A stretch of DNA of 64,000 nt from Candidatus Parvarchaeota archaeon (GCA_017608385.1 JAFCFZ010000001.1:8734-72733); one strand, 5' to 3'. Shown: positions 1,893-48,626, numbered from the stretch's first letter. Notes: generated by a model from the sequence alone, not told the origin. Translations and numbers: made by a program.

Positions 1893-3335
1893 ATGAGGTT
1901 TTTATCACTCCCTGTGATTTTACTTTTGATAATTGGGATTGCTTTTTCAAGTCCTGCTCTTTTTGGATTCACAATATTATCAGATAAACAGTCCTATGTT
2001 CCAAATGATACAGTGAATTTGCAAAATATTGTTCTTTATGGTGTTGATAATCCTGCTTATGGAGCTAATGTCACAATACATCTTTATGATCCTAACAGAC
2101 TTTCTTTTCTGAATTCCTCTTGTTCTACTGATGAAAATGGAATTTGTAATGTGAATTTTACACTAGGTAATGAATTGGGCTATTGGATTGTAAATGGAAT
2201 TACCGAATTATCTGGAAATAGCATAATGAGTGTTATTCTTCTTGATATTCATGAGGAAATTTGTGGGGATGGGTATTGTGATATTAATGAACCTGGAAAT
2301 TGTGAATTAGACTGTGGAAAAATGAATGGGGGTGTTTGTTCATTAGATCAAGAATGTTATTCTGAATCTTGTTGTCATGGAATATGTAGAGATGATTGTC
2401 CTCATTGTGGGGATGGGTATTGTGATTCAGGGGAAATTTGTGTTTCTGATTGTGGAGAAGACATAGATACTGTAATTGAAGAAATGACTTCTTCTGGTTG
2501 GGGTTTCTTTGTAAGTGTTGGAATGAAAATTCATTCTGAGACATATTTTCAAACCTCTCAAAATTCAATATTAGAATTCGAAGTAGTTGTTGAAAATTTA
2601 GTTAACTCAACTAAAGAAGGAGTTTATCTCAGATTCGAAGGTGTCTCAGATCCTAATTTCTTTCCTGAAATAACTGATATAAATCCCTTAACAAATCAAT
2701 CCTTTGTTGTTTCCATTCCAATCTTATCTGGAGAAGATTTAGGAAATAAAACAATTGAAATGATTGCTGTTTCAAATAGATCTGTAAGTAATAGAGTGGA
2801 TATCACAATAAATGTGATTGAGACAGAATTTGATTCTCTTTTTAATTGCGTATTACAAGAATGTGAAATTCTTTGTTGTGAAAATTATGTTTGTTGTGAA
2901 GGTGTTTGTAGAACCTCTTGTCCTTATTGTGGAGATGGAATTTGTTCAATTGGAGAAAATTGTTTGTGTTCTGATTGTAATTCTTGTGAAAACAGTGAAA
3001 TTACAGGAAACAAAGAAGAAGCAGAGTCCAAAATCACTCAAGCAGAACTAGCAATTCAAAATGCTTTTGTTTATGTTTTTCAATTAATGATACAAGAATC
3101 TAAAGATTTCCTAGAAATTGCTAAGAATAATTTTGTGATATTTGATTATTCTCAATCAATTGTAATGGCTAACAATTCTCTAGAAACAACAAACAAAACC
3201 CAAATTTATGAATTCCTAAGTTATGGGAGTGTTGTACTCCTTTTCAGCTTGTTTTTCATCAACAAGTTTTATAAATCTCGAAATCAATCAAGAAAATATG
3301 GCAAAAGTATCAGTAAAAGGAAATCTAGGCGTTAA
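1893..3335 (+). CDS. Secreted cysteine-rich repeat surface protein with a C-terminal TM anchor
   Basis: An N-terminal signal or TM helix (LPVILLLIIGIAF) is followed by three CGDG[YI]C...DCG cysteine-rich modules (EEICGDGYCDINEPGNCELDCG, CPHCGDGYCDSGEICVSDCG, CPYCGDGICSIGENCLCSDC). The C-terminus has a hydrophobic helix and a basic tail (VVLLFSLFFINKFYKSRNQSRKYGKSISKRKSRR). There are many N-x-S/T sites. Confidence 0.55.
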   Translation: MRFLSLPVILLLIIGIAFSSPALFGFTILSDKQSYVPNDTVNLQNIVLYGVDNPAYGANVTIHLYDPNRLSFLNSSCSTDENGICNVNFTLGNELGYWIVNGITELSGNSIMSVILLDIHEEICGDGYCDINEPGNCELDCGKMNGGVCSLDQECYSESCCHGICRDDCPHCGDGYCDSGEICVSDCGEDIDTVIEEMTSSGWGFFVSVGMKIHSETYFQTSQNSILEFEVVVENLVNSTKEGVYLRFEGVSDPNFFPEITDINPLTNQSFVVSIPILSGEDLGNKTIEMIAVSNRSVSNRVDITINVIETEFDSLFNCVLQECEILCCENYVCCEGVCRTSCPYCGDGICSIGENCLCSDCNSCENSEITGNKEEAESKITQAELAIQNAFVYVFQLMIQESKDFLEIAKNNFVIFDYSQSIVMANNSLETTNKTQIYEFLSYGSVVLLFSLFFINKFYKSRNQSRKYGKSISKRKSRR

Positions 3336-3984: not shown

Positions 3985-4334
3985 CATATCTGTTCTATTT
4001 CTGTACCATTAACTAACATAACTTCACATGGAAAATATGCTGAACAATTATTTTTACAATAATCGAGAGTGATCAAATAATTTATGTTAAATCCTGCAAG
4101 AAAAATTTGTCTCATTTCAAAACAGTCATTTCTACATTTGTTCTCTAAATCTGAATTATATGTATTTATACATCCTGTATATTCTGAACTCATACAACAA
4201 AGATTGTAATCAAATGAGCAACAAAGCCTTTCATTTACAAATCCACAATTAAAGTAAGTTAGACTTATAAACAAGACAAGAGGAATTGAGAAGAGTAATA
4301 AAAGTATTCCAAAAAGAAATGGTTTAAGTTTCAT
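3981..4334 (-). CDS. Small secreted cysteine-rich protein
   Basis: An N-terminal signal-like helix (MKLKPFLFGILLLLFSIPLVLFISL) is followed by a 90-aa domain with about 13 Cys. I did not recognise a family. Confidence 0.35.
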   Translation of the reverse strand: MKLKPFLFGILLLLFSIPLVLFISLTYFNCGFVNERLCCSFDYNLCCMSSEYTGCINTYNSDLENKCRNDCFEMRQIFLAGFNINYLITLDYCKNNCSAYFPCEVMLVNGTEIEQIC

Positions 4335-4383
4335 AAAATTTAGAATAAGCCCATATTTAAAATGTTTTTCAATTCAGAAAGGT

Positions 4384-4391
4384 TTAAAAGA
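4384..4391 (+). promoter_or_regulatory. Putative archaeal TATA box for the 5S rRNA gene
   Basis: TTTAAAAG is centred about 24-28 nt upstream of the predicted 5S start and is preceded by a purine-rich BRE-like stretch (AAAGG). Confidence 0.4.
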
Positions 4392-4411
4392 ATAAAGGAA
4401 GGTATAATTTT

Positions 4412-4528
4412 TGCCCACGGTCATAGTTTTGGGGGAAACACCCGTTCCCATTTCGAACACGGAAGTTAAGCCCCAAAGCGTTATTGGGTGTACTGTCTAA
4501 CGACGGGAAACCAGTGAGCTGTGGGCAC
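4412..4528 (+). rRNA. rrf: 5S ribosomal RNA, stand-alone and not linked to 16S/23S
   Basis: The sequence contains the conserved 5S core ...GGTCATAG...CCCGTTCCCATTTCGAACACGGAAGTTAAGCCCC...GTACTG.... The terminal helix pairs 5' TGCCCACGG with 3' CTGTGGGCA. The region is GC-enriched relative to its flanks and is about 117 nt long. Confidence 0.85.
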
Positions 4529-4558
4529 TCTTATATATCTGATTTGATAATTTTTTTT

Positions 4559-4816
4559 ATGGCCAATCCATATGAAGAGGTTAAGAGATTGTTTGACCTA
4601 GCTAAAAAAAATCCAAACAATACTAAATATATCGAAACAGCTAGAGAGATCATGAAAAAGCAGAGAAAAGCCCTTCCAAAAGAACTCTCTGATAAATTCT
4701 GCAAAAAATGCAATATCTACTTTATTCCTGGTAAAAACTGTAAAGTTAGAATATCTAACAAATCAGTTTTCATTCATTGTGAAAAATGCAATACACTCAA
4801 AAGAATAAAAGCATAG
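4559..4816 (+). CDS. rnp4: RNase P protein component 4 (Rpp21/Rpr2 zinc-ribbon protein)
   Basis: I trimmed the ORF to the internal Met (MANPYEEVKRLFDLAKK) because the upstream part overlaps the 5S rRNA. A basic N-terminal helix and C-terminal CKKCNIYFIPGKNCKVRI...CEKCNTLKRI match the Rpp21 zinc-ribbon pattern. Confidence 0.6.
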   Translation: MANPYEEVKRLFDLAKKNPNNTKYIETAREIMKKQRKALPKELSDKFCKKCNIYFIPGKNCKVRISNKSVFIHCEKCNTLKRIKA

Positions 4817-4854
4817 CAAAAGATTTAAAACATGTTTTGATTTAAGGAGTTTAT

Positions 4855-5289
4855 ATGGTTACAGTCAATGATGTTCAAGGAAAAGAATTAGTAGACCTTC
4901 TTGGGGTAAAAATGAAGTCTATAAAGGAAATAAGTCCTCCAGAATGGTCTAAATTTGTTAGAACAGGACTTCACAAACAAAGACCACCTGTTCAAGAAGA
5001 CTGGTGGTTTACTAGATGTGGAGCTATTTTAAGAACTATTTATGTTCATGGCCCAACAGGGGTTGAAAGATTAAGAACAAAGTATGGTGGTAGAAAGGAT
5101 AGGGGTGTCAGAAAAGAACACTTCAAAAAAGGAAGTGGAAATATAATCAGAAAGTGTTTACAGCAATTAGAAACTGCTGAATTGATTGAAAAAGATAAAA
5201 AAGGGAGAAAAATAACCAAAAAAGGAATGAAACTTGTAGACAAAACTGCCATGGAGTTGATTAAAAATGCAGGAAAATCAACAAAATGA
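4855..5289 (+). CDS. rps19e: Ribosomal protein S19e
   Basis: The motifs PEWSKFVRTG, DWWFTRCGAILRTIY, GVERLRTKYGG, HFKKGSGNIIRKCLQQLE are characteristic of S19e. Confidence 0.85.
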   Translation: MVTVNDVQGKELVDLLGVKMKSIKEISPPEWSKFVRTGLHKQRPPVQEDWWFTRCGAILRTIYVHGPTGVERLRTKYGGRKDRGVRKEHFKKGSGNIIRKCLQQLETAELIEKDKKGRKITKKGMKLVDKTAMELIKNAGKSTK

Positions 5290-43485: not shown

Positions 43486-44604
43486 ATGAAAAAATCTCAA
43501 AATGCTGTGCCTGCTATTCTTTTCTTATTTTTGGGGCTTTTTTTGTTTTATGTACTAATGATGACACCTAGTCAAATGGAAGGGCTTTTTGGAGATGACT
43601 CACCAACAACAAATGTTTCACAGGGAATTTCAGAAGAAGTTGGTTTGGTAGGAGGTTCAAGCGGAACAGAAATAGTTGGAACAAGGGATTTTCCAGAGTT
43701 TTTTGTTGCTTATCCTAGTGAGAGGACATTGAGGCACCACGAGAATCAGTTTACTTTATCCTCTAATATTTTTTATTCTGATTCTAAATATTATGATTTT
43801 GAAAAAGGGGACAATACTAAAGGAGTGCAAATATACATGAATATTGCTTCTTTGACAGGAGGCCCTTCATTAAGAGTTCTTCTTAATGGAGTTGAAGTGG
43901 GAACTGTACCCTCTGCAGGAGAAACAACATTAGAAATTGATGAGGCTCAACTTAACTCAAGTAATAGAATTTTGGTAGTTTGTCAATTCCAAGGATGGGC
44001 TTTCTGGGCAGGAGAAACATGTAATTTTGATGAAATGAATATTTATATTGAGAATTTTGAAACCAAAGACAGTAATTTCTCAAGAAATTTTGACATAACT
44101 GAAAAAGAAGCATATGCTTCATTTGTTGTTCTAAATTTCAGCATTGGTGAAAAAACAAATGATGGTGACATTATTGTTAGCATAAATGATGTAGAAGTTT
44201 ACAAAGACAACCCTGTTGAAGGAATATACACTGTAGAGGAAGAAATGAATATCCTTCAAACAAATAAACTACTTGTTCAAGTAGAAACAGGTGGGATTTA
44301 TGAAGTCAAAAAAATGACTTTAGGATTTAAAATGGATCAAATAGCTGAAAAAATGCCAATTATTGATTTTTACCTTGATGATACAAATTCTGACATAATT
44401 GTTAGAGTTTATGTTGAGGAATTAGTTCTTGGACCTAATATTCTAAATCTAAGAATGGAATCAGCAGGAGTGACATATCAAATAAGTCCATTAAGGGCAG
44501 GTTGGAATGAGATCACAATAAATAAAGAACATCTTAGATTAAGAAATTCAATGAGACTATCTTCAAATGGTTTAGTTGATATTGACCACATTGAGATAGA
44601 ATAA
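43486..44604 (+). CDS. Large secreted protein with a class III-like (K-S-Q) N-terminus
   Basis: MKKSQNAVPAILFLFLGLFLFYVLMM is followed by a 340-aa beta-rich domain. I did not recognise a family. Confidence 0.45.
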   Translation: MKKSQNAVPAILFLFLGLFLFYVLMMTPSQMEGLFGDDSPTTNVSQGISEEVGLVGGSSGTEIVGTRDFPEFFVAYPSERTLRHHENQFTLSSNIFYSDSKYYDFEKGDNTKGVQIYMNIASLTGGPSLRVLLNGVEVGTVPSAGETTLEIDEAQLNSSNRILVVCQFQGWAFWAGETCNFDEMNIYIENFETKDSNFSRNFDITEKEAYASFVVLNFSIGEKTNDGDIIVSINDVEVYKDNPVEGIYTVEEEMNILQTNKLLVQVETGGIYEVKKMTLGFKMDQIAEKMPIIDFYLDDTNSDIIVRVYVEELVLGPNILNLRMESAGVTYQISPLRAGWNEITINKEHLRLRNSMRLSSNGLVDIDHIEIE

Positions 44605-44613
44605 GGTGCAAAA

Positions 44614-46233
44614 ATGCCTATTGAAGAAAAATGGTTTTTTGAGGAGGAGGAGGAAGAGGATTCTGATGGAGAGTCTTCTGACTCTGATGGAGAGTCTTCT
44701 GACTCTGATGGAGGTTCATCTAAAAAACAGGGGGGCTGGGCCTACATAATAATGAGTATTGTTTTTGGATTTGTTGGATTTCTTATTTTAGGATTATTGG
44801 GTGGTTTTCTTCTCTTTATATTTCCATTAATTATCTGGTACTTTGGACCAGGAAAGGGAGTCAATTTTGTTATTTTGATTCTTGCTGCTTTTTTGGGATT
44901 GTGGTTTGGTGGAATTTTAGCAGCATTTCTTCTTCCTCTCCCAATTGCAGCTTGGTTATTTAGTGGTTCTTTCTTTGGAGAAGAAGGCGAAGGTAAATTT
45001 TTAAGAGGAATGTTAAGTATTGCTGCATTTATTCCGTTTTTCCTCGTATTTTTGTGGCCAATGATAGGAAGTTTTTTTGGATCTCAAGTTGCAATGGTTG
45101 GAACAAGCTTTGATGATTTTATTGGTATGATAAGTTCTCAAAAAGATCTTTTGATGAATGCAGATTATCAAAGATATTTAGGAGTTCAACAAAGTGTTTA
45201 TGATACTTCTTCACAAACTTATTCAAGTCCTACTACTAGTTTTGAGATAAACAGTTTTACTATCTCTCCTGAAAGTGGATGTTTTGAATTAAACACAATG
45301 AACTTTTTTGGTGTTGTAAAAAACACGGGGACTTTGAATATTGAAGGTATGAAAACGGGATTTTATTTAGATCCCACTCAAATAGGAACTAATTGTGAAC
45401 AAACAATCACCCAAATGGGGCACAAATATAAATGTCTTCTTGGACAAGAATGTATTATGGGGAAATGTGGGCTTGTTTTAGGAGAATACTTCTTAAATGC
45501 TGTTGAACCAGATTGTACATCTCATCCAAATCATGAGAGATGGGGATGTTATTGTGTGGATGAAGATGAAGTTAATACTATGAATACATTATATCCAAAT
45601 GCAATTGGAACATTTACTAAAACGATTGAGATGATTGATCCAAGTGATCCTCTTGATGTTGTAGACGCTATAACATGTAGGTTATTTGCTTATGCTCAAG
45701 CAGAATATACTGTTAGATCAAGATTAGAAGTTTCAATGATAAACTCTGAGTATTACATACTTAAGGGATTAGTATTTTCATCTGTCCCAGCAGTTCAATC
45801 AATAGGTCCTGTTCAATTGAGAATGGGTGTTGGAACACAACCAATTATTAACAACGAAGATAAAAGAGTTTTAACTGTTGCTCTTGGTAATGAAGGAAAT
45901 GGAGAATTAATTGATCTCAATAGTGTCTCATTATATGTCCCTACAGAATTTTCATCAGCAGGATGTGAAGGAGGTCAATTTGTTAGAACAGTTTGTTCAA
46001 GCGCTCCATCTAATATAGATAATTGTGAGGAAATGAGAAGTGAGGGATATAATTTATTTGTATTAGCAGTTGAAGCAACTCCCTATTCCTCCTATTCATG
46101 CTCATTAACTATTAATGAAAATATAAAGAATCTAGGTGGTGAAAACCGAAGATCATTTGTATTTTTAGCAGATGCTTCATATAATTACATGGTCAAAGCT
46201 CCTGCATTCATAACAGGAAATAGGTGTGTTTAA
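44614..46233 (+). CDS. Polytopic membrane protein with an acidic SDGESSD repeat N-terminus and a Cys-containing extracellular C-domain
   Basis: The N-terminus reads EEEEEEDSDGESSDSDGESSDSDGGSS. It is followed by about 6 TM helices in roughly 180 aa, then a roughly 350-aa soluble domain with about 12 Cys. Confidence 0.5.
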   Translation: MPIEEKWFFEEEEEEDSDGESSDSDGESSDSDGGSSKKQGGWAYIIMSIVFGFVGFLILGLLGGFLLFIFPLIIWYFGPGKGVNFVILILAAFLGLWFGGILAAFLLPLPIAAWLFSGSFFGEEGEGKFLRGMLSIAAFIPFFLVFLWPMIGSFFGSQVAMVGTSFDDFIGMISSQKDLLMNADYQRYLGVQQSVYDTSSQTYSSPTTSFEINSFTISPESGCFELNTMNFFGVVKNTGTLNIEGMKTGFYLDPTQIGTNCEQTITQMGHKYKCLLGQECIMGKCGLVLGEYFLNAVEPDCTSHPNHERWGCYCVDEDEVNTMNTLYPNAIGTFTKTIEMIDPSDPLDVVDAITCRLFAYAQAEYTVRSRLEVSMINSEYYILKGLVFSSVPAVQSIGPVQLRMGVGTQPIINNEDKRVLTVALGNEGNGELIDLNSVSLYVPTEFSSAGCEGGQFVRTVCSSAPSNIDNCEEMRSEGYNLFVLAVEATPYSSYSCSLTINENIKNLGGENRRSFVFLADASYNYMVKAPAFITGNRCV

Positions 46234-47264
46234 TGGATTTGAAAAAAATAATACCAATATTGGCAGTGGTTTTGGTACTTGGATGTATACAAGCTCCAGC
46301 AGAAGAAACCAAATTAATGGAATCTGAAGGATTAGGAATTCTATTATTCGGACTTCCATCTAATCCAGAAAATCCTGTTATAGAAATTGAAAAAGTTCCC
46401 GCTAATTCAGATGCCTTTCTTAGTCTTATCTTAAGAAACAATGCAGAAGGAGACATAGCTAAAGATATCACAGTTAGTCTAGACAATGTTGAGCCGTTTG
46501 ATATTGTAGAATGTGGAGATCAACATTCTCCTGTTGCTCAAAGAACTGAAGCATGTTATGGAAGTATATATGATGACAGACTTGAAGATGACTATAGAAC
46601 ACACAGAATAAATGAGATGAGACCTGATGAAGAATTAGAATTTTTTTGGGTGTTAAAATCTCCATCTAAACTAATAACGGGGGGTTTGTATTATCAACAC
46701 CCTATTTATGTAAGTGTGAATTATCACTATCATACAAGTATCTATACTGGTGTTGCTGCAATGACCTTTCAAGAGTATTCTTCAAGAAAATCTGGAGGAG
46801 GAAGTTTAACAGGAACTAGTACTTCAAGTGCAGGAGAGGTAATTGTTTATTCCCAAACAAGTGAGCCTATCTTATATGTTCAAGGTTCTCCTGGTTCATT
46901 TGTATTGAAATTATTAATAACTAATAGAGGAAATGGGATCCCAAAACCGAATGAAAAAGTCAACTTAACTATTGAGTTTGATAAAAATCTTGTTGAATTA
47001 AATGGAGAAACAACAGTTGATGTTGCAAATCAAAATCAGTTAAGATGGTTTAATACAGAATATGGAGCAAACAAACAAGATAGAGAATCATTATTACTCC
47101 AACAAATAGAACCAATCAATTTGATATCAAATTCTTACACAATAAATGTTCCTTTCAAATTATTGGAAAGTAATGCTAATTACCAAATTTTACCTTTTTA
47201 TGTGAGAATCAGTTATGATTATTCTTTAGAAAGTCAGACAGCATTAGGGGTGATACCAACTTGA
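46224..47264 (+). CDS. Lipobox-like secreted protein
   Basis: The N-terminus MDLKKIIPILAVVLVLGCIQAPAEE contains the lipobox-like LVLGC. It is beta-rich with N-glycan sequons and overlaps the next gene. Confidence 0.5.
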   Translation: MCLMDLKKIIPILAVVLVLGCIQAPAEETKLMESEGLGILLFGLPSNPENPVIEIEKVPANSDAFLSLILRNNAEGDIAKDITVSLDNVEPFDIVECGDQHSPVAQRTEACYGSIYDDRLEDDYRTHRINEMRPDEELEFFWVLKSPSKLITGGLYYQHPIYVSVNYHYHTSIYTGVAAMTFQEYSSRKSGGGSLTGTSTSSAGEVIVYSQTSEPILYVQGSPGSFVLKLLITNRGNGIPKPNEKVNLTIEFDKNLVELNGETTVDVANQNQLRWFNTEYGANKQDRESLLLQQIEPINLISNSYTINVPFKLLESNANYQILPFYVRISYDYSLESQTALGVIPT

Positions 47265-48136
47265 AAAAATATATACCTCTCTTTCTAGTGTTGCTTGTTC
47301 TTGGATGTATTCAACAAGAACCTGAAACAAATGACAAAATAATAACTTTTAACGGTTTGACAATTGTTTCATTCTCTGCAGACATAACCAACTTATTACC
47401 AGGAGAAACAACAGATTTGGAACTTTATATCAGAAACATTGGTGACTTCACTGCAGATAATATTGAGACTAAATTAATTGGTTTAGGTGAAATGACTGCA
47501 TTAATGAGAGGTTCCCCTCTAACAGAATTAGAACAAGCAGATTATGATTCATTTTCATGGGAATTAACAGCACCAAATATAGCTGGATTTACAACAGAGG
47601 TACCAATGACCCCTCAAGCAACAGTATATTACAAATATTTTTCACAGGCTTGGTCTGATGTAAATATTGTTCCTTCTTCATATTCTGAACAAGTAACTTC
47701 AGCAAATGGTACTTCCTCAGCTCCAATTGACATCACTATAACCCCAAGTTCAACTCCTTTGAGAACATATAGAGACAATATGCCTCTAAACATCCATATA
47801 GATTTAACAAATAGAGGGGGGGGAGGAATAGCATATTTCGAAAGTGGAGTTGAAAATTCAGCAAAAGCCAATTTTGTTGAGAATATAGTTATTAGATTCC
47901 CATCAGAATGGATAATTACAGATGATTCTTGGACCCTTTTAGGGGATAATGGTGCTGAAAAAGTATATTCATTGGGATGTTCTAGTGAATCCATTGTCCC
48001 ATATATCTGTCCTTCTGGATATAGTAAAGTGGGGAGTTCTTGTATTCAGTGTCCTTCTGGATATAGTTATAATGTAGAAGTTGGATGTGTTTTAGAAGTT
48101 GCAATAATTGATCCGGAAGTTTTCAGGATACAATAA
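47261..48136 (+). CDS. Lipobox-like secreted protein with CPSGY repeats; its C-terminal part appears to continue in ORF 48108..48626 after a +1 frameshift
   Basis: The N-terminus MKKYIPLFLVLLVLGCIQQEPE carries the same LVLGCIQ as the upstream gene. The C-terminus starts the repeats ICPSGYSKVGSSCIQCPSGYSYNVEVGC. The ORF ends 11 codons after a T4 run (48120-48123) where the reading frame switches. Confidence 0.5.
   Translation: MKKYIPLFLVLLVLGCIQQEPETNDKIITFNGLTIVSFSADITNLLPGETTDLELYIRNIGDFTADNIETKLIGLGEMTALMRGSPLTELEQADYDSFSWELTAPNIAGFTTEVPMTPQATVYYKYFSQAWSDVNIVPSSYSEQVTSANGTSSAPIDITITPSSTPLRTYRDNMPLNIHIDLTNRGGGGIAYFESGVENSAKANFVENIVIRFPSEWIITDDSWTLLGDNGAEKVYSLGCSSESIVPYICPSGYSKVGSSCIQCPSGYSYNVEVGCVLEVAIIDPEVFRIQ
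48008..48121 (+). repeat. 114-bp perfect direct repeat, copy 1 (copy 2 at 48243..48356)
   Basis: The 114-bp sequence TGTCCTTCTGGATATAGTAAAGTGGGGAG...ATTGATCCGGAAGTT is identical at both sites. A diverged 121-bp copy of the same coding unit lies between the two. Confidence 0.85.
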
Positions 48137-48626
48137 GGTTGGGGTCTTTTGTATAACATGTCCATCTGGATATACCTACGACATGGAGATTGGTTGTATA
48201 AAAGGAGAGGATATACTCTCAACAGAATCTACAGACCCTATTTGTCCTTCTGGATATAGTAAAGTGGGGAGTTCTTGTATTCAGTGTCCTTCTGGATATA
48301 GTTATAATGTAGAAGTTGGATGTGTTTTAGAAGTTGCAATAATTGATCCGGAAGTTATAATTGATCCGGAAGTTGCTGATCCTCTTTGTCCAAATGGTTC
48401 TGTGGAAGAAGAAGGAAAATGTATTTCAACAGATTCAGAAAGTTGTACAATTGATGATTTGAATTATAAATTAAGATTAACTCAAGGTAATTCAAACTTA
48501 GTTATAGTTCCATTCAATATCAGTCAAGTAGACACACCAGTAACTGAAAGATTCTATGTGAATATGACTTATGGATATAAATTGAATTCAAATCCAATAA
48601 CAATAACAATAATTCCCTTAATCTAA
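48108..48626 (+). CDS. CPSGY-repeat protein fragment, probably the C-terminal continuation of 47261..48136
   Basis: It has no signal peptide of its own. It continues the repeat motif (GYNKVGVFCITCPSGYTYDMEIGC, ICPSGYSKVGSSCIQCPSGYSYNVEVGC, IIDPEVIIDPEV, CPNGSVEEEGKC). Confidence 0.45.
   Translation: MIRKFSGYNKVGVFCITCPSGYTYDMEIGCIKGEDILSTESTDPICPSGYSKVGSSCIQCPSGYSYNVEVGCVLEVAIIDPEVIIDPEVADPLCPNGSVEEEGKCISTDSESCTIDDLNYKLRLTQGNSNLVIVPFNISQVDTPVTERFYVNMTYGYKLNSNPITITIIPLI
48243..48356 (+). repeat. 114-bp perfect direct repeat, copy 2
   Basis: It is identical to 48008..48121. Confidence 0.85.
48339..48374 (+). repeat. 18-bp tandem duplication (ATAATTGATCCGGAAGTT x2) encoding IIDPEV-IIDPEV
   Basis: It is read directly from the sequence and abuts the end of repeat copy 2. 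Confidence 0.8.

Follow-up and report, generated by a model that had tools for sequence, protein, structure and literature searches.

Split Lipoprotein Gene and Its Coding Repeats

We analyzed a 64,000-nt window of a contig from a Candidatus Parvarchaeota archaeon (JAFCFZ010000001.1; 31.5% GC), in which a predicted surface lipoprotein gene is split into two open reading frames (ORFs) inside a cassette of Cys-rich coding repeats. All coordinates are positions in this window, and those of the individual features are collected in Table 1. ORF1 encodes 291 amino acids and stops at a TAA codon (48134–48136). ORF2 (48108..48626; 172 amino acids) lies in the +1 frame relative to ORF1, and the two frames overlap by 29 nt (48108–48136). 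A run of four T residues (T4) occupies positions 48120–48123. An earlier interpretation of the locus, which we refer to as the sequence-only reading, described both ORFs and the T4 run correctly. It placed the end of ORF1 11 codons after the run; the codons that follow are in fact TTC AGG ATA CAA TAA, so that ORF1 acquires an out-of-frame tail of four residues (FRIQ) before it stops. The ORF1 product is identical to a database protein (P0001; 282 amino acids, GTG start) encoded by a 116,755-nt JGI/NCBI contig.

The cassette contains two copies of a unit, A1 and A2, that are identical at 114 of 114 nucleotides. The match extends to 118 nt from position 48004 with a single mismatch, and an exact repeat of 114 nt in a 64-kb sequence of 31.5% GC cannot have arisen by chance. 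Both copies end in the 18-mer ATAATTGATCCGGAAGTT, which is found at 48104–48121, 48339–48356, and 48357–48374; the last two occurrences stand in tandem. Between A1 and A2 lies unit B, a diverged copy with 70% nucleotide identity over an 81-nt core. The starts of A1 and A2 are separated by 235 nt (3n+1) in the window. The exact repeat, the diverged coding unit that separates its copies, and the 18-bp tandem duplication had all been recognized in the sequence-only reading, and each was borne out.

Protein Family and Nature of the Frameshift

A HMMER search of 1.84 billion representatives, in which the repeat-free N-terminal 243 amino acids served as query, retrieved a family of 168 representatives, most of which are 290–350 amino acids in length. 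The closest members, P0004 (294 amino acids) and P0005 (291 amino acids), show 44–46% identity (phmmer E = 1e-60 and 1e-52, respectively), and both are single ORFs in a matching operon context. The position of the split gene, fourth in its operon and beside convergent PHP-PAC2-Nop10-aIF2alpha genes, is shared with loci L002, L003, and L004. The last ~55 amino acids of the ORF2 tail align to the C termini of the orthologs; V433 and Y439 are invariant and F418 is nearly so in this alignment (alignment A1), which also shows that the lipobox cysteine, Cys16, is nearly invariant across the family. BLASTP revealed that the C terminus of the upstream paralog is similar to this C-terminal module, and AlphaFold2 modeled the C-terminal tail together with the core of the protein, assigning a predicted local distance difference test score (pLDDT) of 81–94 to residues 411–450. 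Because the syntenic orthologs are single ORFs of 291–294 amino acids and their C-terminal strands match the ORF2 tail, these comparisons show that positions 47261–48626 constitute one gene, as the sequence-only reading had proposed for its two ORFs. The product of this gene is a secreted, lipobox-anchored protein with two predicted β-sandwich domains that belongs to an uncharacterized archaeal family.

Three near-identical contigs that belong to the same population and come from sister metagenomes were found through exact copies of two neighboring genes. L005 and L007 (JGI 3300033155) and L006 (JGI 3300033142) reach the split gene, and a fourth sister contig, L001 (3300033153), ends before it. 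L006 and L007 read GATCCGGAAGTT-GCTAGTCTTATATGTCC-TTCAGGATAC, where the window reads GATCCGGAAGTT-TTCAGGATAC; the immediate surroundings of the junction in the sister contigs are GAAGTT-GCTAGTCTTATATGTCC-TTCAGG. The 17 additional bases encode A-S-L-I-C-P, restore the reading frame, and supply the Cys-Pro pair that opens hairpin 3 of the cassette (EV-ASLICP-SGYNK). They are homologous to GCTGATCCTCTTTGTCC (A-D-P-L-C-P), which follows A2. In L006, the reading frame is open up to the contig end. With the 17 nt restored, the spacing between the A units becomes 252 nt, or 84 codons. The left edge of the deletion is the last base of the perfect repeat at the A1/B boundary. These comparisons show that the frameshift is a 17-bp deficit relative to an in-frame sister allele; the T4 run is the scar of the deletion, in which GTT became joined to TTC.

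The sequence-only reading had instead attributed the frameshift to the T4 run, through either a +1 insertion or strand slippage, which would represent a sequencing error or homopolymer phase variation. Deletion of one T does fuse the two ORFs arithmetically, although into 454 amino acids plus a stop rather than the 455 amino acids claimed. The +1 frame likewise carries the repeat motif on to 48626, but not without interruption: the five bases TGTCC (Cys-Pro) are missing from the start of the middle unit. When B was aligned to A with MAFFT, a 5-nt gap fell precisely on this TGTCC, which provides the Cys-Pro codons at the start of every unit, and this gap already made the T4 run doubtful as the cause. 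The restored allele encodes 460 amino acids with 16 cysteines after the lipobox, whereas the one-T correction yields an odd number (15) and a protein devoid of the first cysteine of hairpin 3. Runs of at least four T residues occur 837 times in the window, which makes this one unremarkable. A T4 tract is, moreover, too short for slippage-based switching. The site has neither a long homopolymer (~7 nt or more) nor a multi-copy short repeat, the tracts that define contingency loci based on homopolymers or simple-sequence repeats, and it exhibits no tract-length polymorphism: sister contigs with 99.9–100% identical flanks differ from the window by the 17-nt block, not by the number of T residues. 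A change in the T4 run is thus a very improbable cause of the frameshift, and slipped-strand phase variation at this tract was rejected. The comparison with related assemblies that the sequence-only reading had called for therefore places the lesion in the 17-nt block and not in T-tract length. Fresh pseudogenization, which the same reading also entertained, is still a live interpretation once the T-tract change is discarded as its cause.

Programmed +1 ribosomal frameshifting, or another form of recoding that joins ORF1 to ORF2, would fit the overlap between the frames and the fact that both halves of the gene are otherwise intact. However, the shift is not conserved, since the orthologs and the sister allele in L006 are in frame, and the junction lacks a structural cysteine. 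Inspection of GAA GUU UUC AGG AUA CAA UAA disclosed no X XXY YYZ heptamer and no known +1 motif (a stimulatory structure was not sought). Recoding is hardly credible on these grounds, and programmed frameshifting was rejected because the orthologs are single ORFs and a sister allele is in frame.

Comparison with the family shows what the deletion removes. The ORF1 product has the N-terminal lipobox signal and similarity to the family over its N-terminal ~240 amino acids. The C-terminal module (..RL..G....F....E...V...Y.Y..) is missing from this polypeptide; it is encoded in the +1 frame only, and restoring the 17 nt is required to rejoin it to the N-terminal part. Although the gene is a member of the family, the ORF1 product that it encodes is truncated, and ORF1 alone lacks strands that the whole family has kept. 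Because these family-invariant strands are missing, the truncated product is probably non-functional, as far as the structure model can be trusted.

A separate observation concerns base composition within the split gene. The window has a single G or C homopolymer of 7 nt or longer, a G8 run at 47816–47823, and this run lies in the gene (AGA GGG GGG GGA, read as RGGG), where it encodes a Gly-rich motif conserved among orthologs (N-x-G-G-G). The run is invariant in L005 and L006 and thus gives no sign of slippage.

Table 1 Features of the split gene, its repeat cassette, and the surrounding operon
Feature	Position	Strand	Description
ORF1, 5' fragment of the gene	47261..48136	+	Lipobox signal peptide (LVLGC, Cys16), β-sandwich domain 1, most of domain 2, hairpins 1-2
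Remainder of the gene	48122..48626	+	+1 frame; truncated hairpin 3, hairpins 4-7, conserved C-terminal strands
Deletion junction	48121..48122	+	17 bases GCTAGTCTTATATGTCC missing relative to sister contigs, leaving the T4 run and the frameshift
Lineage-specific Cys-rich insert (cassette), ~160 amino acids	47975..48455	+	Seven C-P-x-G-(Y)...C hairpins with linkers
Unit A1	48008..48121	+	CPSGYSKVGSSCIQCPSGYSYNVEVGCVLEVAIIDPEV; exact match to 48243-48356; identical in L006
Unit B, diverged, 5'-truncated in the window	48122..48242	+	(CP)SGYNKVGVFCITCPSGYTYDMEIGCIKGEDILSTESTDPI; identical in L006 and L007
Unit A2	48243..48356	+	Identical to A1
Tandem duplication of the 18-mer ATAATTGATCCGGAAGTT	48339..48374	+	IIDPEV twice, in frame; window only
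Conserved C-terminal β-strand module	48456..48626	+	YKLRLTQGNSN...FYVNMTYGYKL...ITIIPLI; translation of ORF1 stops short of it
Four-gene operon, membrane or secreted proteins	43486..48626	+	372 amino acids, 539 amino acids, 343/346 amino acids, split gene

Cys-Hairpin Cassette and Its Variation

The cassette is arranged as unit A (two hairpins and a linker), unit B (two hairpins and a linker), a second unit A, and one further hairpin, and a single cysteine is found on either side of it (LGC and SESC). AlphaFold2 modeled the region as β-hairpins with low confidence. The cassette occupies a domain 2 loop that varies among family members. P0004 and P0005 have no insert at this position; unrelated, Cys-rich inserts of 10–190 amino acids occupy this loop in members that are more distant. 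Within the window, the CP.GY motif is confined to the cassette. The only matches to the cassette among 5.8 billion proteins are two CPSGY-repeat proteins, P0002 and P0003, that are annotated as cEGF (PF12662). When the T-deleted fusion served as query in a word-index search of proteins, nothing was retrieved beyond the gene's own ORF1 product and two unrelated proteins with CPSGY repeats; the fusion identified no locus in metagenome or genome contig collections, which evidently lack the source and sister samples. P0002 and P0003 resemble the cassette in their tandem, short C-P-x-G-Y...C hairpin units; what is shared is the repeat motif alone and not the host protein. The cassette falls below every Pfam threshold, its best match being EGF_MSP1_1 at 17.8 bits (cutoff 27), and PF12662 was not reported.

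P0009, a relative encoded in L009, also has a repeat-bearing insert, but its repeats are 78% identical; perfect repeats are thus lineage-specific rather than a trait of the family. The contrast between A1 and A2 (100% identity) and between A and B (70%) is the pattern of concerted evolution of repeats. It supports the proposal of the sequence-only reading that the A units were homogenized by a very recent duplication or gene conversion, which the sequences make the probable explanation. A pair of ~114-nt repeats in a surface-protein gene might also represent the template and variable repeats of a diversity-generating retroelement, and such elements are known in DPANN archaea. However, the copies match at every position and thus show no adenine-specific differences, and each belongs, in frame, to a single coding cassette. 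Scans of the operon proteins and of 20 larger ORFs of the window (at least ~245 amino acids) gave no match to a reverse transcriptase (RVT). A retroelement repeat pair was rejected on the identity of the copies and the failure to find a reverse transcriptase in the proteins scanned, and we assign it a negligible probability.

Variation among the sister contigs is sharply localized. Over ~11.5 kb outside the cassette, 6 single-nucleotide polymorphisms (SNPs) and no indels separate these contigs from the window. Within the ~370-nt cassette, the window differs from them by three or more indels, not counting the 18-nt duplication, which is found in the window only, and by no SNP. In L007, the A unit that precedes B lacks 9 nt (TTAGAAGTT; Leu-Glu-Val), a difference that preserves the frame and is flanked by GTT microhomology. 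The last A linker of L007 reads GGATGTGTT|TAATTGATCC, which corresponds to a deletion of 31 nt when compared with the window, or of 13 nt if the reference allele has only one 18-mer. This deletion lies in the same linker as the 18-nt duplication of the window; it creates a TAA codon and constitutes another frameshift, independent of the first, and the JGI annotation has two ORFs at this place. By our own arithmetic, three indels distributed evenly over ~12 kb would all fall in the ~0.7 kb of cassette compared with a probability of ~2e-4.

The A-B-A order was assembled independently in L006 and L007; hence, the repeat arrangement is not a one-off mis-assembly, a possibility that the sequence-only reading had raised. 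These comparisons show that the A-B-A architecture is reproducible across assemblies and that indels cluster in the linkers of the A units. In L007, the A unit is preceded by the end of a B linker, not by unique upstream sequence, and the contig begins there. This arrangement may imply at least B-A-B-A, as a consequence of either an extra unit or a loop in the assembly graph, and it provides a hint of the copy-number variants for which the sequence-only reading had suggested a check. L005 ends at 47959, 45 nt upstream of the repeat, and carries a C/T SNP at its position 5034 (window 47884), 75 nt before that end. Together with the ends of three contigs at the cassette, this SNP suggests that more than one allele is present per sample.

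The same contig ends bear on whether the deletion is an artifact of assembly or consensus calling, in which case the organism's gene would be intact with its 17 nt and the contig would have taken an incorrect or minority path across a region that is rich in repeats and heterogeneous among strains. Each of the three sister contigs has an end within the cassette or close to it (L005 upstream of it, L006 inside A2, and L007 starting at the B linker), which indicates that the region tangles assembly graphs. In addition, the left edge of the deletion coincides with the end of the perfect repeat, and the 17-nt deletion is found in one assembly only. Several observations oppose an artifact. The junction GAAGTT|TTCAGG offers no shared sequence through which edges of a graph could be mis-joined; with nothing common to both sides, a de Bruijn path through a shared k-mer should be unable to create it. 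The rest of the window, which is 95% coding, contains no broken genes, and L007 independently has its own frameshifting indel in these linkers, distinct from the 17-nt loss; such indels thus recur here. Housekeeping genes among 20 other large ORFs that were scanned have full-length Pfam matches (e.g., Rad51 1–243/244 and Cpn60 1–488/490). Because the two sides of the junction share no sequence, a loss of 17 nt is atypical of short-read errors, and the scanned housekeeping genes are full-length, we infer that the 17-bp deletion is a true genomic variant. An artifact appears unlikely.

Our preferred reading, which we hold to be rather probable, is that the window allele is a real, non-programmed null or pseudogene allele that arose in an indel hot spot and segregates beside in-frame alleles. 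In this lineage, the variable loop of domain 2 would have gained a cassette of ~160 amino acids composed of disulfide-type CPSGY...C hairpins in the order A-B-A, and very recent duplication or gene conversion would have rendered the two A units identical. The linkers that follow the A units would act as an indel hot spot in the natural population. The window allele would then have lost the 17 bp GCTAGTCTTATATGTCC exactly at the A1/B boundary, a loss that would remove the Cys-Pro opening hairpin 3, shift the frame, and halt translation four codons on, leaving a product without the conserved C-terminal strands.

Several points weigh against this interpretation. The 17-nt deletion is found in the source contig only: exact look-ups of P0001 and of the 172-amino-acid ORF2 product retrieved no further contig, and thus no second record of the truncated protein. 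The deletion could represent a minority variant, or else an error that entered the source assembly at the consensus stage. A complete in-frame allele was not recovered: the L006 contig breaks off within A2, and L007 has a frameshift of its own at a downstream position. Of the three alleles, two are out of frame, which could reflect selection for switching instead of simple decay. Finally, the proposed loss of function depends on a structure model of moderate quality (mean pLDDT 64).

It is tempting to speculate that the cassette is a contingency region in which indels and unequal recombination adaptively switch the surface protein on and off or alter its size; such switching could help to evade viruses or to modulate attachment to a host. 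The near-clonal genomes compared include one in-frame allele and two independent indels that disrupt the frame, the cassette contains no SNPs and neighboring genes are identical, L007 may carry an extra A-B unit, and the insert occupies a loop that is variable and Cys-rich throughout the family. On the other hand, the frameshifting indels are irregular (17 nt; 13 or 31 nt) and not multiples of a short repeat unit, they have 0–1 nt of microhomology and are not readily reversible, and T4 is the only homopolymer at the site. We consider adaptive switching quite improbable. A mechanistic version, equally speculative in our estimation, holds that the cassette is a hypermutable module in which recombination between the identical A units, combined with error-prone repair or slippage in the linkers, repeatedly switches off or resizes the lipoprotein in a near-clonal population. 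A literature search on DPANN plus phase variation returned nothing specific. If true, an uncultivated, low-GC archaeon would undergo phase or antigenic variation driven by repeats, perhaps under pressure from viruses or from attachment to a host.

Operon Context and Relation to Known Systems

Four genes that are closely packed or overlap make up the operon, which ends with the split gene, and all four of the encoded proteins have an N-terminal hydrophobic or lipobox signal. None of them matches a Pfam or NCBIfam family above threshold. The gene order of the operon recurs in L002, L003, and L004 and, more loosely, in L009, and the operon is followed by convergent genes for PHP/MJ0043_C, PAC2, Nop10, and aIF2-alpha. 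The upstream partner genes are located at 43486..44604, 44614..46233, and 46233..47264. The 539-amino-acid partner has an acidic, Ser/Asp-rich N terminus (SDGESSDSDGESSDSDGGSS), several transmembrane helices, and a Cys-rich ectodomain; the 343-amino-acid partner is a lipobox paralog of the split gene.

Two of the related loci have features of their own. At positions 4270–5524 of L003, the PHP/MJ0043_C gene was called as two ORFs of 268 and 143 amino acids, whereas it is one gene of ~400 amino acids in the window, L002, and L004; the copy in L003 may be split or frameshifted. The more distant locus L009, which carries P0009, has a MazE/PIN toxin-antitoxin pair (4378–5057) inside the equivalent surface-protein operon.

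The window as a whole is a segment of an archaeal chromosome with a coding density of 95%. It encodes FtsY, SRP54, RadA, CysRS, PPDK, SecDF-like proteins, a Hel308-like helicase, the thermosome, aIF2-alpha, Nop10, and PAC2. Its low GC and gene content suggest a DPANN-like lineage; a query with aIF2-alpha retrieved a single locus, from Promethearchaeota, at 27% identity. An ORF of 480 amino acids at 1893–3332, which has a sub-threshold match to MG2 (alpha-2-macroglobulin type; 27 bits versus a cutoff of 32.8), may be another β-sandwich surface protein. For the split gene itself, the resemblance to Ig-fold domains of the CARDB (PF07705) or MG-like (PF01835) type is generic and confined to the level of the fold: CARDB scored 13.0 bits, below its gathering score of 22.7, and the β-sandwich has no specific structural neighbor.

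The streptococcal alpha C and Rib proteins and the mycoplasma Vlp and Vsa proteins are surface proteins that generate size variants through unequal recombination or slippage between long intragenic repeats. The locus described here resembles these systems in that a secreted or lipid-anchored surface protein contains near-identical, in-frame coding repeats, the units evolve in concert, and strain-level indels and possibly copy-number variation occur between clonal flanks. It differs in that the family is archaeal and uncharacterized and two identical units are separated by a diverged one. Moreover, the frame is broken here by irregular linker deletions, not by the gain or loss of whole units, and any phenotype or switching is only putative. 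In Neisseria, Haemophilus, and Campylobacter, simple-sequence contingency loci mediate phase variation through homopolymers or short repeats. The split gene resembles those loci in that a surface gene exists in in-frame and out-of-frame states within a population; however, the lesion coincides with no long homopolymer or short-repeat tract, and the 17-nt block lacks microhomology and is not obviously reversible. By analogy, the locus appears to behave like the bacterial long-repeat surface proteins that vary by recombination, in an unannotated archaeal family, and it introduces no new mechanism.

The analysis corrects the nature of the lesion from a homopolymer slip to a 17-bp deletion allele, and for this reason an annotation fix that removes one T would yield the wrong protein. 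It also defines a conserved, previously unannotated four-gene archaeal surface operon, the last gene of which has a Cys-rich loop that varies across the entire family. In an uncultivated archaeon, the cassette provides a case of sharply localized indels within a surface gene, one that can be tested with sequencing reads. Should several alleles coexist per sample, the cassette would be a useful marker for strain dynamics and for selection acting on the cell surface; otherwise, the gene would be an ordinary, fresh pseudogene.

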